Part shown: positions 3,544-8,904 of the stretch, in pieces
How the letters are laid out: every line of letters starts with the position of its first letter
Position numbering within the stretch: position 1 is the stretch's first letter
Source of the DNA: a virus
Taxonomy: Duplodnaviria; Heunggongvirae; Uroviricota; Caudoviricetes
Virus record (IMG/VR): IMGVR_UViG_2547132488_000013
DNA length: 9,319 nucleotides
Strand: one strand, 5' to 3'
The notes under the pieces: model-generated
What the model saw: only the letters and a program-made list of their open reading frames with translations
Told to the model about the DNA's origin: nothing
The model's database searches: none
Made by a program: the position numbers and the translations under genes

Positions 3544-3794
3544 GCGAATCAAAATGTCAGGTTAATGGTAATCAGATAGAACCATGTGCGGCACTGGCAA
3601 AGTCCCTTGAGCATGATGCTGAATACACGACGCGAAAAGGTCTGCTGATATACAAAATCTGGAATGAGAGTTTAACTCGCGGTCCTGATTTGGTGATGTT
3701 GCGTTCCGGTGAATTTTCTAAATTACCAGTGCGGGTTTCATTTTGTCCGTTCTGTGGTGAAAGTCTGAAAACGTGGGAGAACAGAAATGAATGA
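3540..3794 (+). CDS. Hypothetical protein (84 aa) with zinc-ribbon-like cysteines
   Basis: GTG start with SD AGGAGG (3527-3532). Cysteines at C6 and C16 plus CPFCGE near the C-terminus. Overlaps the next ORF by 8 nt. Confidence 0.6.
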   Translation: MSESKCQVNGNQIEPCAALAKSLEHDAEYTTRKGLLIYKIWNESLTRGPDLVMLRSGEFSKLPVRVSFCPFCGESLKTWENRNE

Positions 3795-5162: not shown

Positions 5163-5957
5163 ATGAACGCTATCACCAAAGAACGTATTGAATTGTTCAT
5201 TAAAAATTCGCTTGAAAACGGGTTTACTCGTAGCGAACAAATGGAAGTGGCACGGATTGCTTTGGCATCGCTGGAAGCAGAACCGGTTGCAGTAAACGAC
5301 GACATGGCTTACGCATTCCATCACGCATTGTCAGATTCATCGCTAGGCGCTGATGAAGTAGAGGAAATTAAGGCCGGTTTGCGTGCTGCCTTTGCCAACG
5401 TCACTATCCAACCAGAGCCGGTAGTGCCGGATGAAATCGAGCCAGACGATAGCAATACGTTTGATTATGTTGATGGCTGGAACGCCTGCCGCGCCGCCAT
5501 GCTTCAGAGTCAGAGGGAAGGCAACCCTCATGTAACCCCGGCTCGCCTGCCTGGTGGTTTCACTATTGAGGATGCGAAGGAGTTACATGAAGACCTGGTA
5601 CGCAGCCACATAAGCCAGGCTTTAAGTGGCGAGAAGATGAAAAAGAAAGATCGTGATGCTGATTTGCGCTGGATTCATGGCGTTATAGTACAGGCAGCGT
5701 GGTTTGTGAAAGCTTCACTGGATGCGTTGCCTGAACCGCTGCGGGAGGAGAAGGGAGGAAGTGCCAACTGTACTGCCAGTCATGGTACAACCGACAATCC
5801 ACCAGTACCAGGCAAACAGACTGACGAATTAACCATGCTGGTTAAGCAATTGGTCAGTCAACTGAAGAAAGTGAAGCCGGACTGTAAATTGCCGGATAAG
5901 GCGATGGACTACCTGAAGCGGAACGAACTGATAAGTGCGGAGGATGTTTTGCGATGA
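5163..5957 (+). CDS. Hypothetical protein (264 aa); N-terminal module paralogous to the preceding gene
   Basis: ATG 5163 with SD AAGGA (5151-5155). N-terminus MNAITKERIELFIKNSLENGFTRSEQMEVARIALASLEAEPVA. Acidic central region. Confidence 0.75.
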   Translation: MNAITKERIELFIKNSLENGFTRSEQMEVARIALASLEAEPVAVNDDMAYAFHHALSDSSLGADEVEEIKAGLRAAFANVTIQPEPVVPDEIEPDDSNTFDYVDGWNACRAAMLQSQREGNPHVTPARLPGGFTIEDAKELHEDLVRSHISQALSGEKMKKKDRDADLRWIHGVIVQAAWFVKASLDALPEPLREEKGGSANCTASHGTTDNPPVPGKQTDELTMLVKQLVSQLKKVKPDCKLPDKAMDYLKRNELISAEDVLR

Positions 5958-6037
5958 CCTGGCCTGAAGCATTCACAACGGTAGGAATTGCGATGGCGGT
6001 GGCGCTGGTGGTGTATTCGATTTGCCGTTGGGGATAA
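5954..6037 (+). CDS. Unannotated 27-codon hydrophobic peptide, translationally coupled to the 264-aa gene
   Basis: ATG 5954 overlaps the upstream stop (ATGA 5954-5957). Translation MTWPEAFTTVGIAMAVALVVYSICRWG, stop TAA 6035-6037, directly followed by a strong terminator. Below the ORF-track length cutoff. Confidence 0.35.
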   Translation: MTWPEAFTTVGIAMAVALVVYSICRWG

Positions 6038-6042
6038 CAAAC

Positions 6043-6073
6043 AAAAACCCCGGATTGATGGTCCGGGGTTTTT
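6043..6073 (+). terminator. Rho-independent terminator (potentially bidirectional) ending the early-right gene block
   Basis: 7-bp GC stem CCCCGGA (6048-6054) / TCCGGGG (6062-6068), loop TTGATGG, A5 upstream (6043-6047) and T5 downstream (6069-6073). Confidence 0.75.
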
Positions 6074-6294
6074 GAAGGAAACAAAACAGAAACAACAATT
6101 GCCGTTACCTGTTGTTACCATGGCAAGTAAACGTATCTCAGGCGAGCGCATTGCACCGTTCTGACGCAGATAAATTAGCCATGGATAGATGGTGCTGGCA
6201 ATAAAAAATAGCGTTTTCTTATCGGTGTCGGTAAGATTGCTGCGGGTGCTTGAGGCTGTCTGCCTCGGGCATGCCACTGTAAGGCAGGCAGAGA

Positions 6295-6397
6295 AAAGCC
6301 CCAGTTAACATTACGCGTCCGGCAAGACGCTTAACATTAATCTGAGGCTCCCTATGCATGACAACATCAGGTTAGCCTCTTACGTGCCGAAAGGCAA
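6295..6397 (-). ncRNA. sok: Candidate Sok-like antisense RNA locus (promoter plus expected transcript over the mok start)
   Basis: Minus strand reads TTGCCT (plus 6392-6397), 17-nt spacer, TAACCT (plus 6369-6374), predicting a leftward transcript from about 6362 across the mok start (6354-6356). This is where Sok maps in hok/sok loci. Transcript 3' end not identified. Confidence 0.3.
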
Positions 6398-6566
6398 GGA
6401 GAAGCAGGCTATGAAGCAGCAAAAGGCGATGTTAATCGCCCTGATCGTCATCTGTTTAACCGTCATAGTGACGGCACTGGTAACGAGGAAAGACCTCTGC
6501 GAGGTACGAATCCGAACCGGCCAGACGGAGGTCGCTGTCTTCACAGCTTACGAACCTGAGGAGTAA
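6354..6566 (+). CDS. mok: Mok-like in-frame N-terminal extension of hok (overlapping regulatory reading frame)
   Basis: ATG 6354 opens a 70-codon frame whose last 51 codons are hok. This matches the layout I recall for chromosomal mok/hok pairs such as mokC/hokC. Confidence 0.4.
   Translation: MHDNIRLASYVPKGKEKQAMKQQKAMLIALIVICLTVIVTALVTRKDLCEVRIRTGQTEVAVFTAYEPEE
6411..6566 (+). CDS. hok: Hok/Gef-family type I toxin (small membrane-depolarising peptide)
   Basis: 51 aa: MKQQKAMLIALIVICLTVIVTALVTRKDLCEVRIRTGQTEVAVFTAYEPEE. N-terminal TM helix and conserved RKDLCEVRIRTGQTEVAVFTAYE signature of Hok/Gef/RelF. SD AAGGAG (6396-6401) 9 nt upstream. Confidence 0.85.
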   Translation: MKQQKAMLIALIVICLTVIVTALVTRKDLCEVRIRTGQTEVAVFTAYEPEE

Positions 6567-6633
6567 GAGACCAGGCGGGGGAGAAATCCCTCGCCACCTC
6601 TGATGTGTCAGGCATCCTCAACGCACCCGCACT

Positions 6634-6654
6634 TAACCCGCTTCGGCGGGTTTT
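6634..6654 (+). terminator. Rho-independent terminator downstream of hok
   Basis: AACCCGC-TTCG-GCGGGTTTTT: 6-bp stem (6635-6640 / 6645-6650), TTCG tetraloop, T-tract 6650-6654. Confidence 0.7.
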
Positions 6655-6781
6655 TCGTCGCATTATGAGGTTGTAATTTTAGCTACCATTAGACTATCCT
6701 AAGGATCTCAAACAGATCTATTTTGCATCAAATTTGGTGCATGGCTTTGCCAATAATCGGAAAACAAAAGGACTCATTAGT

Positions 6782-6961
6782 ATGAGCTGCCCACTCAAAA
6801 AACACACGCGGTTGAGTATTCCGCCTCGCGATAAAAGCGTTGTGGCAGTCCCTCGCCCAGCGATTGATGAAAACTGCGCACATCGTGAACAAGTGAAAAA
6901 TGCTTTTGATTTCGGTTTTTCTCGTTATGAGAAAGCCATGGAAGACCTCTCTAAAGTGTAA
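6782..6961 (+). CDS. Small ORF upstream of the Doc-family toxin; putative cognate antitoxin
   Basis: ATG 6782 with SD AAGGA (6768-6772), 59 aa. Ends 20 nt before the Doc-like gene, the usual antitoxin-first layout. The track start at 6734 is a TTG with no SD. No recognisable Phd signature; role inferred from position only. Confidence 0.5.
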   Translation: MSCPLKKHTRLSIPPRDKSVVAVPRPAIDENCAHREQVKNAFDFGFSRYEKAMEDLSKV

Positions 6962-6981
6962 TAGATGGGGGGCTGTACTCC

Positions 6982-7467
6982 ATGGCTGAGATTGTTGAAG
7001 GTGTGCATTACCTTACGGTTGATGATCTTGTTGAAATCAATCGTTCCCTAATTGAATTACAGACGCCAGATGAGCCCGTTGGTGTTCTGAGTCCAGATAA
7101 CTTAAGTTCTTCTCAGGCCCGTCCCAGCATGGTTCGATGGTATGAACAGATCAATGACATGTTTGTACTGGCATCGGTATTGATTGAAAGTCTGATTCAG
7201 AATCATCCGTTTGCTAATGCGAACAAACGAACAGCTATGATGGCTGGTTACGTCTTCTTGTTGTTGAATGGCTATGAGTTAACAGCACCAGGCGATGAAA
7301 TCGTGGAAATGGCAGAGGGACTGGCCTGCAAAACCTATACTCGAGAAGATCTCGAGAACTGGTTGTGTTATTGGTCTCGTGCGTATGACAGCCGGGAATT
7401 ATGTAAAACAGGCGCAACTATTGTTTTGTATGAAACTATCAAGCTTAAAATAGAACAGCAAAACTAA
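6982..7467 (+). CDS. doc: Doc (death-on-curing) / Fic-fold family toxin
   Basis: 161-aa ORF containing HPFANANKRTAMMAGYVFLLLNGYEL, which matches the Doc-type catalytic motif (compare P1 Doc HIFNDANKRTA). Confidence 0.8.
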   Translation: MAEIVEGVHYLTVDDLVEINRSLIELQTPDEPVGVLSPDNLSSSQARPSMVRWYEQINDMFVLASVLIESLIQNHPFANANKRTAMMAGYVFLLLNGYELTAPGDEIVEMAEGLACKTYTREDLENWLCYWSRAYDSRELCKTGATIVLYETIKLKIEQQN

Positions 7468-7483
7468 AGGTGCTTCCAATGAA

Positions 7484-7505
7484 AACCCGCTTCGGCGGGT
7501 TTTTT
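7484..7505 (+). terminator. Rho-independent terminator downstream of doc (same hairpin as the hok terminator)
   Basis: AACCCGC-TTCG-GCGGGTTTTTT: stem 7485-7490 / 7495-7500, T-tract 7500-7505; begins 17 nt after the doc stop. Confidence 0.7.
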
Positions 7506-7580
7506 GTTTTACGTATTCTGGTTTACAATCCACAGGCCAGCCTGAACAACTGGCACCTGCTGCGCCAGCAGAGAAAACCG

Positions 7581-7853
7581 ATGGCGCACAATACCAAACA
7601 TCACAATTCTGATACCGACCTTGCCAGCAGGCACGGGCGGCGTTCTCATACATTCAAATATGACTGGTACCAGCATGACCCATGCACTGAAGAACAGGCC
7701 GAATGGCTGATTCAGAACTACCGCAGGCGTGGGTACGAGTTTCAGAAAGACCTCAGCCCTGACTTCCGACACTGGATAATTTCTGTCAGGCTCCCTTATT
7801 CCGAACGCCCACCGCGTCCATCCCGCACATACCAGCAACGGATCTGGAGGTAA
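7581..7853 (+). CDS. Small basic protein in the position of Qin-prophage Rem (90 aa)
   Basis: ATG 7581 chosen because the track ORF from 7470 reads through the terminator hairpin. Lies immediately upstream of the YdfU-like gene, as rem does in Qin. Weak SD; start codon uncertain. Confidence 0.5.
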   Translation: MAHNTKHHNSDTDLASRHGRRSHTFKYDWYQHDPCTEEQAEWLIQNYRRRGYEFQKDLSPDFRHWIISVRLPYSERPPRPSRTYQQRIWR

Positions 7854-7854
7854 C

Positions 7855-8904
7855 GTGCGGGTATTAGTTCGACCTGCCCTGGTACCGGAACTCGGACTGG
7901 TGGTGCTAAAGCCGGGCCGCGAATCCATGCAGGTATTTCATAGCCCTCGAGTGCTGGTGGAGCCGGAACCGAAAAGTATGCGCGGTCTGCCGTCCGGAGC
8001 CGTCCCTGCCGTTCGCCAGCCGCTGGCGGAAGATAAATCATTACTGCCATTTTTCAGCAATGAGCGGGTAATTCGTGCTGCCGGTGGCACTGGTGCACTG
8101 TCTGACTGGCTCCTGCGTCATGTTAAATCCTGCCAGTGGCCTCATGGTGACTATCATCACAGTGAAATCGTCATACATCGTTACGGTACCGGCGCTATTG
8201 TGTTGTGCTGGCACTGCGACAACCAGCTGCGTGACCAGACCTCAGAATCACTTGAGCAACTTGCTCAACAAAACCTGGCAGCATGGATGATTGACGTCAT
8301 CCGTCACGCAATAAGCGGTGCGCAGGAGCGTGAATTATCGCTGGCTGAATTATCCTGGTGGGCTGTCTGCAATCAGGTGGCGGACGCACTACCGGAGGTA
8401 GTATTACGTCGTTCTCTGGGGTTACGTGCGGAAAAAATTCGCTCGGTGTACCGCGAAAGCGACATCATACCGGGAGAGCAGACAGCCACCAGCATACTGA
8501 AGCAGCGCACAAAAAATATTGTGCTATCGCCTCACGTCCACCAGCAACAGAACTCACCGCAGGAAAAGGCGGTGGTCAGCATTGCCGTTGATCCGGAGTC
8601 TCCGGAATCTTTCATGAAGCGACCTAAACGTCGCCGTTGGATAAATGAGAAATACACACGCTGGGTGAAGACACAGCCGTGTGCGTGTTGTGGTAAGCCA
8701 GCCGACGATCCCCATCACCTGATTGGTCATGGTCAGGGCGGAATGGGAACAAAATCCCACGATATTTTCACGCTACCGCTGTGTCGGGAGCATCACAACG
8801 AACTTCATGCGGATCCGCTGGCGTTCGAAGAAAAGCATGGTTCTCAGGTTGATTTAATTTTTCGTTTTCTTGATCACGCCTTTGCAACCGGTGTGCTTGG
8901 GTAA
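7855..8904 (+). CDS. YdfU-like prophage protein (DUF968-type) with C-terminal Cys/His-rich putative metal-binding nuclease-like motif
   Basis: 349-aa ORF, GTG start 4 nt after SD GGAGG (7846-7850). C-terminus CACCGKPADDPHHLIGHGQGGMGTKSHDIFTLPLCREHHNELH. Length and position (between a rem-like gene and rusA) fit Qin-type YdfU. Confidence 0.75.
   Translation: MRVLVRPALVPELGLVVLKPGRESMQVFHSPRVLVEPEPKSMRGLPSGAVPAVRQPLAEDKSLLPFFSNERVIRAAGGTGALSDWLLRHVKSCQWPHGDYHHSEIVIHRYGTGAIVLCWHCDNQLRDQTSESLEQLAQQNLAAWMIDVIRHAISGAQERELSLAELSWWAVCNQVADALPEVVLRRSLGLRAEKIRSVYRESDIIPGEQTATSILKQRTKNIVLSPHVHQQQNSPQEKAVVSIAVDPESPESFMKRPKRRRWINEKYTRWVKTQPCACCGKPADDPHHLIGHGQGGMGTKSHDIFTLPLCREHHNELHADPLAFEEKHGSQVDLIFRFLDHAFATGVLG

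Follow-up and report, generated by a model that had tools for sequence, protein, structure and literature searches.

A terminator hairpin shared by hok and a Doc toxin cassette at a cargo hotspot of lambdoid prophages, and its possible part in cassette exchange

The sequence considered here is a stretch of 9,319 nucleotides (nt) from a virus of the Caudoviricetes (IMG/VR record IMGVR_UViG_2547132488_000013), referred to below as the window. It carries two toxin modules in tandem, a hok/sok locus and a Doc-type toxin–antitoxin (TA) cassette, each of which ends in the same 21-nt hairpin. Taken alone the window is ordinary, presenting two terminators that end two toxin modules; the comparative pattern is the interesting part. 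Judging by the sequences of related prophages, the intergenic site that immediately follows the hok terminator is a hotspot for accessory cargos (morons), and it is rather probable that the shared terminator acts there as a short patch of homology through which cassettes are exchanged. Recombination at the hairpin would then be the cause of the pattern, as comparative anatomy suggests.

Cargos and junctions behind the hok terminator

The elements on which the argument turns are the two copies of the hairpin and the sequence that follows the second.

6635-6655, + strand: hairpin copy 1, predicted intrinsic terminator of the hok mRNA; stem 6637-6641/6646-6650, UUCG loop, five U
7484-7504, + strand: hairpin copy 2, predicted terminator native to the Doc cassette; stem extended to 7481-7504 and followed by TGTTTT; right-hand context joined in register
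7505-7580, + strand: right-hand context R15 (GTTTTACGTA, and TTCTGGTTTACAAT at 7516-7529), upstream of a gene for a 90-amino-acid (aa) protein

The 21-mer AACCCGCTTCGGCGGGTTTTT occurs in two exact copies, both on the + strand, and no third copy was found in the window with up to three mismatches allowed. The original prediction, made from the window alone, had noticed both; its position for the second stands, while the first lies at 6635-6655 and not at 6634-6654. It was right that the flanks differ, as identity ends with the 21-mer on both sides, the preceding base being T in one copy and A in the other and the next base C and T, respectively. A chance repeat is ruled out by shuffling, since none of 200 dinucleotide shuffles contained two matches, albeit that this null is too lenient for a recurrent terminator design and overstates the significance. 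The frequency of the exact core among the terminators of these prophages is a fairer null, and counts of the terminator repertoire, given below, were used for this purpose.

Both copies are predicted to fold into a CCCGC-UUCG-GCGGG hairpin (-13.9 kcal/mol for copy 1 and -14.9 kcal/mol for copy 2, in 41-nt contexts), copy 2 having an A4/U4 extension of the stem and a longer U-tract (U6GU4). A scan for the terminator consensus passed copy 2; copy 1, with U5 only, was absent from its list. The distance from stop codon to hairpin is 68 nt for hok (copy 1) and 16 nt for doc (copy 2). By design, both 21-mers are Rho-independent terminators of one widespread type (CCCGC stem, UUCG tetraloop, U-tract), and either would be expected to terminate transcription.

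The sequences found directly after the hok hairpin in relatives are of at least 20 different kinds. The commonest state is the absence of cargo, with a single hairpin in the order hok-hairpin-(90-aa gene)-ydfU, as seen in phage Evi and at least ~42 viral loci; counts from these scans of viral contigs for sequence patterns are lower bounds, taken from the first 120 loci per scan. In the occupied states the hairpin stands on both sides of the Doc TA pair (two alleles), of three diverged RosmerTA systems (RmrT/RmrA, with E values down to 6e-105), of a pair formed by a helix-turn-helix (HTH) protein and a Peptidase_M78 protein, and of a gene for a 130-aa lipoprotein (PHROG 16082, function unassigned). 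A PDC-S42 cargo has the hairpin on its right side. The suggestion that gene content between conserved flanks might vary among lambdoid prophages, in the manner of a toxin or defence island, is thereby borne out, the same slot in relatives being empty or holding RosmerTA, HicAB, PDC-S42, the HTH and M78 pair or the lipoprotein.

The lipoprotein-bearing loci (L003, L004, L155, L194 and ~60 more; L numbers denote sampled loci) show a further change. Their hok terminator has lost 7 nt (GGTTTTG), leaving CCCGCTTCGGCG followed by T6, and the left hairpin lies ~8 nt after the hok anchor. On sequence grounds this loss should weaken termination and let hok transcripts run into the lipoprotein gene.

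Evidence for the hairpin as a joint comes from the right-hand side of the cargos. Seven different right contexts accompany the Doc cassette; several of these directly follow hok in loci without cargo. R15, conversely, stands behind three different cargos, following the hairpin also behind two RosmerTA cargos (L008 and L157); a search of 185,579 species-representative genomes found no exact doc-hairpin-R15 junction. Each of five right contexts, read from the hairpin, is identical at every base and in register with and without cargo, whilst the partner upstream of the hairpin may be the 3' untranslated region (UTR) of hok or the tail of one of four cargos, namely Doc, the lipoprotein, the HTH and M78 pair or RosmerTA. 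The sole sequence common to the junction partners is the 19-mer ACCCGCTTCGGCGGGTTTT. The original prediction that the hairpin marks boundaries used in shuffling is upheld in so far as the hairpin is an exact, in-register joint to at least five right contexts, with shuffling itself suggested by comparative anatomy. The left junctions are looser and vary over 0-15 nt, Doc following immediately after T5, the HTH and M78 pair ~12 nt on and the lipoprotein ~15 nt on; the length of the repeat differs between cargos, from 19 to ~30 nt.

A second sample was anchored on one right-hand context alone and was not selected for hok or for the hairpin. The hairpin was present in all 120 loci listed, preceded by hok in 98, by the lipoprotein cargo in 14, by the HTH and M78 pair in five and by Doc in three.

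How far the hairpin is specific to this site was assessed in 299 loci (2.4 Mb), each anchored on the 3' UTR of hok. The exact core CCCGCTTCGGCGGG follows hok in 196 loci and closes seven distinct cargo tails on their right (those of Doc TA, three RosmerTA variants, the HTH and M78 pair, the lipoprotein and PDC-S42); it was found neither elsewhere in these hok-bearing loci nor on the opposite strand. CCCGC stems with other loops are the commonest type of terminator there (67 of 187 distinct contexts). Outside such prophages the element is generic. The exact 21-mer also terminates the core rplM-rpsI operon, near-matches occur 2-13 times per genome (median 6) in all 5426 complete E. coli genomes, the 3' end of the Rfam rsmX consensus, a Pseudomonas small RNA (sRNA), is the same hairpin, and ~75 among the first 120 viral loci listed carry the 19-base core in unrelated contexts. 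The possibility that the 21-mer is merely a common terminator with no link to module boundaries is thus half realised: it is generic across E. coli and viruses, and boundary-restricted in hok-bearing prophages.

Related hairpins are used elsewhere. AACCCGC/GCGGGTT stems with the loops CATTGA, TTTAT, TATAT and TACG close other modules in these prophages, for instance at ~2070 nt (L146) and ~2010 nt (L113) after the hok anchor and at 3622 and 3768 in L429. In many unrelated IMG/VR contigs (L010-L129) the hairpin is followed by TT(A/T)TTGCC(C/T)GGAG-N5-8-ATG, and this position directly 5' of a ribosome-binding site and start codon suggests widespread use as a terminator or insulator between phage genes.

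A role of the hairpin as part of an sRNA was considered and rejected, as the Rfam matches to rsmX (32 bits), isrK (26) and istR (22) all fall below gathering scores; the rsmX match, whose alignment was the only one displayed, rests on the terminator hairpin. The isrK match covers 6575-6656, the hok 3' UTR with its hairpin, scoring 26.4 bits (gathering score 50; E = 0.004), and it too may rest on the hairpin, its alignment not being displayed. IsrK is an sRNA of Gifsy-1, likewise a lambdoid prophage, in which it lies upstream of an antiterminator region.

The two toxin modules and the origin of the second copy

The hok/sok module comprises the following features.

6244-6416, + strand: hok mRNA leader and sok antisense region; full-length match to Rfam RF01794 'sok'
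6244-6256, + strand: tac element GGGTGCTTGAGGC, the hok mRNA 5' end
6354-6566, + strand: mok frame, 70 aa, containing hok; PHROG 251, MokW-like
6411-6566, + strand: hok, 51 aa; Pfam HOK_GEF, 3e-23 (residues 25-66 of the 70-aa open reading frame, ORF)
6616-6628, + strand: fold-back inhibition (fbi) element CCTCAACGCACCC, complementary to the 5' end of hok mRNA; 6 nt upstream of copy 1

The RF01794 match scores 109.6 bits (gathering score 59; E = 1.6e-25), and mok/hok is labelled hokD in matching E. coli genomes. In the predicted fold of 6244-6656 (z = -6.8) tac pairs with fbi and the terminal hairpin is left free. By these features the hok/sok locus is complete, with a mok-overlapped Hok/Gef ORF, a leader and tac-fbi pairing, and since tac-fbi closure leaves copy 1 as a free terminal hairpin, copy 1 is taken to be the terminator of the hok mRNA. 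It is identical in hokD of the K-12 prophage Qin and is kept at the same position in the 196 hok-anchored loci; homology among relatives ends just 3' of its T-run.

The Doc cassette occupies 6656-7504 (849 bp) and consists of a candidate antitoxin and the Doc toxin.

6656-6781, + strand: left end and leader of the cassette; presumed promoter/operator region
6782-6961, + strand: candidate Doc antitoxin, 59 aa; PHROG 2208, 1.4e-40, function unassigned there
6982-7467, + strand: Doc (death-on-curing, Fic-fold) toxin, 161 aa; TIGR01550 DOC_P1, 1.6e-37; Pfam Fic; PHROG 577

Its left junction, 6655/6656, is illegitimate, homology to phages without cargo ending at 6655, and a second allele of the leader is found in O157, O104 and O103 strains. 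Doc retains an intact HPFANANKR motif, which fits HxFx(D/N)(A/G)NKR, and matches the Doc chains 9vzc, 3k33 and 3dd7 in the PDB. The 59-aa ORF ends 20 nt before doc, and a homologous small ORF precedes doc in a Proteus locus, where it is intact, and in the locus of Salmonella phage SW-37, where the module has decayed. The gene arrangement argues for a Doc-type TA pair with the 59-aa protein as candidate antitoxin. This protein has no match in Pfam, NCBIfam or PADLOC and could not be placed in Phd/YefM, and it probably represents an unnamed family of Doc antitoxins distinct from Phd/YefM.

The G+C content of the cargo is 43.0%, compared with 51.3% for the hok module and 53.0% for the right flank. 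The cargo contains the antitoxin and Doc genes alone, with neither a transposase nor terminal inverted repeats, and no integrase or transposase was seen in or beside the various cargos among the ORFs scanned. The cassette is present in 125 of the 5426 complete E. coli genomes and on no plasmid, the single match among 'plasmids' being a 4.09-Mb Proteus record which is evidently a chromosome. It is also absent from many otherwise collinear phages, in agreement with the original prediction of two separate units, here a complete hok/sok locus and an antitoxin–Doc pair, each closed by a hairpin.

Further elements have settled near the cassette in some strains. In E. coli O104:H4 (L230, 2535-3113) an opposite-strand TA pair, an HTH antitoxin and a RelE/ParE toxin, directly follows the right hairpin of Doc, so that three toxin systems, hok, doc and relE/parE, succeed one another. 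In E. coli M8 (L006, 3687-5949) an IS66-family element, ISEc23, has entered ~240 bp beyond the Doc hairpin on its right, which makes this intergenic zone a target for transposons as well.

The occurrence of Doc cassettes elsewhere bears on the origin of copy 2. In Salmonella phage SW-37 the decayed doc (71% nucleotide identity) has a different terminator on its 5' side and the identical 21-mer on its 3' side, and in Proteus the cassette sits in a tail-gene region. Doc proteins of Morganella, Providencia, Serratia, Kluyvera and Rosenbergiella are 66-73% identical in amino-acid sequence to that of the window. Where a hairpin was found after doc it has the form AACCC[G/A]C-loop-G[C/T]GGGTT. Across eight genera 100% of the pairing is kept, with compensatory changes in three of seven pairs and a covariation score reached by none of 500 shuffles; orthologous hairpins with compensatory changes are those of Morganella, Providencia, Proteus, Serratia and Rosenbergiella. 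By this comparison copy 2 is the Doc cassette's own ancestral terminator and not a copy of hok's made at insertion.

This evidence also bears on the most obvious explanation of a perfect 21-bp direct repeat flanking an 828-bp insert which related phages lack, namely that the cassette is, or rides on, a transposable element that duplicated 21 bp of the hok terminator as its target site. As the same hairpin or an orthologue of it closes Doc cassettes in other genera and away from hok, the pair of copies is not a target-site duplication. Furthermore, the repeat varies from 19 to ~30 nt between cargos, the cargo carries neither transposase nor terminal inverted repeats, and the bases outside the repeat belong to the cargo at the right copy and to hok at the left. 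Transposition of this kind is extremely improbable, and the variable left junction, the lack of a transposase and the ancestral right copy led to its rejection.

In Proteus mirabilis (L232) two hairpins flank the Doc cassette (1590-1610 and 2387-2404), both with the stem ACCCAC/GTGGGT and with the loops TAAGAGT and TCCG. The matching stems on left and right could reflect coincidence or concerted evolution.

Proposed exchange at the hairpin and other explanations

The following sequence of events would account for the junctions. Copy 1 would end the hok mRNA directly after fbi, the element which keeps full-length hok mRNA inactive, so as to protect hok regulation. Copy 2 would end an 849-bp moron bearing the 59-aa antitoxin candidate and the Doc kinase toxin, the hairpin travelling with the moron, and should stop a constitutively expressed cassette from reading into ydfU-rusA-Q (Q lies ~1.4 kb beyond the RusA start in the related locus L005). 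Since hok and the cassettes end in the same 19-21 bases, the hairpin would be the only sequence common to the cassette tails and the many alternative right contexts. Single unequal crossovers inside it, between co-resident collinear phages, could then add, remove or re-pair cassettes and right arms without damage to either terminator. Such crossovers would probably be carried out by phage single-strand annealing recombinases, and hairpin-promoted template switching would be an alternative route to the same products. The first capture of a cassette would need one illegitimate join on the left, because of which the left junction varies over its 0-15 nt.

A number of observations weigh against this proposal. 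The identity of 19-21 bp is shorter than the published minimal segments for efficient pairing, 23-27 bp for Red-beta and 31-34 bp for RecA (PMC3945230), and crossovers within the hairpin would therefore be rare. The window itself encodes no visible recombinase. Because the 21-mer is a terminator of generic type, some of the sharing could be convergent, and the counts from viral contigs include many near-identical E. coli prophages and do not represent independent events. Nor do all occupants of the slot conform: the HicAB cargo (HicA/HicB) ends in a different hairpin, a class with a BOF protein joins upstream of the hairpin and is without it, and the class carrying rem has a single hairpin and no second copy. 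Finally, no sigma-70 promoter for the Doc cassette was found at a threshold of 9 of 12 consensus matches within 5900-7900; inspection by eye suggests a weak candidate, TTGTAA-18-TATCCT, at ~6672-6701.

Selection surely contributes to where junctions are found. A junction upstream of copy 1 would cost the hok mRNA its fbi element or its terminator, and a cassette lacking a terminator would read into ydfU-rusA-Q. It is possible to go further and attribute the whole pattern to convergence and selection, with cassettes arriving by illegitimate events, each bringing its own optimal terminator, and with the junctions seen at hairpins because the survivors are those that keep the hok terminator and insulate ydfU-rusA-Q; sequence identity would then play no part in recombination. 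Such an account draws support from the presence of the same 21-mer at rplM-rpsI and of the core in many unrelated phages, from the prevalence of CCCGC stems among the terminators of these loci, and from the existence of the exceptions with other hairpins. Selection on the hok 3' end is plausible because fbi lies so close upstream of the hairpin, and the Doc cassette had its hairpin before, or independently of, its hok neighbourhood. Convergence does not predict, however, the base-for-base register into five right contexts for four unrelated cargos, nor an exact core at seven cargo tails that is absent from the other terminators in 2.4 Mb. Selection alone does not explain the register or the exclusivity of the core to the hotspot, and this account, in its pure form, is considered unlikely.

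The hairpin also delimits cargos at another place. A RosmerTA system with 87% (RmrT) and 91% (RmrA) aa identity to one at the hok site lies between tape-measure and minor-tail genes and ends in the exact hairpin, and a 267-aa lipoprotein gene occupies the same tail site with the same end. There the hairpin stands directly 5' of the ribosome-binding site of the minor-tail gene (MAIETFTWRT...). The loci concerned, from other enterobacterial siphoviruses, are L436 (hairpin at ~3501, oriented), L049, L064 and L073. The region between the tape-measure and minor-tail genes is probably a second cargo hotspot.

Two more elaborate readings can be entertained in this light. In the first, ACCCGC-loop-GCGGGT would be a recognition site, folded from single-stranded DNA in the manner of attC, for a phage enzyme such as the neighbouring DUF968/HNH-like protein or RusA, and this dedicated enzyme would excise cassettes and insert them at hairpins of several hotspots. 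It would accommodate hairpin-bounded cassettes at two hotspots (after hok and at the tape-measure/minor-tail site), stems that are kept while loops vary among cassettes, and the immediate proximity of DUF968, with its weak HNH signal, and RusA to the right edge of the hotspot. Against it, the position of the left junction varies, and RosmerTA at the tail site, like the Doc cassette in Salmonella, carries this hairpin on just one flank. Neither an integrase nor a transposase was seen among the scanned ORFs in and around the cargos, core genes use the hairpin as a plain terminator, and DUF968 and RusA are tied to the site by proximity alone. A dedicated enzyme is accordingly very improbable. The second reading regards the hairpin as a portable docking element of enterobacterial temperate phages, an integrase-less analogue of attC, through which TA and defence morons would have travelled between two or more hotspots that carry it, either by hairpin-stimulated template switching or by a phage protein acting on the folded hairpin. 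This is quite improbable. The use of the shared terminator as a short homology patch, subject to selection for intact termination, is the explanation preferred here.

The setting of the hotspot and known systems

The window corresponds to the immunity-to-nin region of a lambdoid prophage of Rac/Qin type. Its remaining landmarks are as follows.

410-1057, - strand: LexA-like repressor, first in the order of the window and followed by Cro, YdaT and DUF977
6042-6074, either strand: A-tract/hairpin/T-tract AAAAACCCCGGA...TCCGGGGTTTTTG, a bidirectional terminator by sequence, which closes the early-gene block upstream of hok/sok
7581-7853, + strand: 90-aa PHROG 1212 protein, encoded by the hotspot's nearest conserved gene on the right
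7855-8904, + strand: YdfU-like DUF968 protein (Pfam DUF968, 8.8e-77; weak HNH-like signal), conserved flank of the hotspot on its right

After DUF977 the order is hok/sok, the Doc module, the 90-aa PHROG 1212 protein, DUF968 (YdfU) and RusA. No complete E. coli genome covers more than 63% of the window, which is therefore a new mosaic of familiar parts. The hairpin at 6042-6074 is predicted to fold strongly on both strands (-23.0 kcal/mol on the + strand and -20.7 on the - strand; none of 200 shuffles folds as well), in keeping with the bidirectional terminator previously placed at 6043-6073. It is adjoined by a 264-aa ORF without a Pfam family (5163-5957), and a 27-aa hydrophobic ORF (5954-6037; MTWPEAFTTVGIAMAVALVVYSICRWG) overlaps the latter just before the terminator. 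The original prediction had also named rem downstream of the toxin units. There is no rem in the window; the 90-aa protein encoded at 7581-7853 does not align with Rem and is 71% identical to the K-12 Qin protein encoded between rem and ydfU.

Among the known systems closest to the arrangement are hokD/relBE of K-12 Qin and hokW-sokW of the Sakai prophage Sp5 (PMC8621323), which have the same hok, 3' UTR and 21-mer terminator, followed by the 90-aa gene, ydfU and rusA. In Qin, by contrast, relBE lies upstream of a truncated hok locus, rem lies downstream and there is one hairpin, whereas the window has a complete hok/sok locus, no rem and a downstream Doc cassette with a second hairpin.

A resemblance to the defence hotspots of P2/P4 prophages and satellites (PMC9122126, PMC13586616) lies in the conserved flanks and the rapidly swapped TA and defence cargos, here RosmerTA, PDC-S42, HicAB and Doc. 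The hotspot behind hok differs in belonging to another phage family and to the early-right region rather than a site next to cos. It is also empty in most sampled loci, whilst the P2/P4 slots are almost never empty, and a hairpin joint is not described in those two accounts. A hotspot downstream of hok, or a terminator hairpin as the joint of morons, is not described in the searchable literature, outside which key subscription papers lie.

Integron cassettes offer a further parallel, in that cassette-like cargos are delimited by a recurring imperfect palindrome and many alternative cargos occur at one site. The present element differs from attC in its length (21 nt versus 57-141 nt), in having neither R''-L''/L'-R' sites nor fixed left junctions and in the absence of an integrase, and no attC-type family was returned by the Rfam scan (E<=1). 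An attC-like cassette is ruled out on the grounds of the missing integrase and the wrong architecture.

Morons of lambdoid phages are said to have been described by Juhala and Hendrix. The Doc unit has the anatomy of one, being present or absent between two conserved genes among relatives, lower in G+C content and equipped with its own factor-independent terminator, and it encodes what would be an accessory function expressed in the lysogen. It departs from the concept, as reviewed in PMC3594210, in that no sigma-70 promoter was identified; in all other respects it is a moron. What falls outside the definition is that several unrelated morons share one terminator, which is equal to that of the upstream resident gene.

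The nearest precedent for such sharing is found in the modular theory of phage evolution, with its short conserved boundary or linker sequences (Susskind & Botstein, and Clark et al. 2001, as cited in PMC3029335). As there, otherwise unrelated modules have a short sequence in common that coincides exactly with the mosaic junctions and may permit homologous exchange. The linker differs here in being a terminator hairpin of 19-21 bp, below the minimal pairing lengths, whose function in RNA alone could explain its conservation. A clear case of a short functional element that also offers a patch of homology would be relevant to the long-standing debate on whether phage mosaicism arises by homologous or illegitimate recombination. 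To our knowledge most mosaic junctions of phages show no shared sequence. The hotspot behind hok may also be a source of candidate defence genes, among them the 130-aa lipoprotein, the 59-aa Doc partner and the HTH and M78 pair, and it provides a concrete example of how toxin and defence cassettes may be shuffled among lambdoid prophages.

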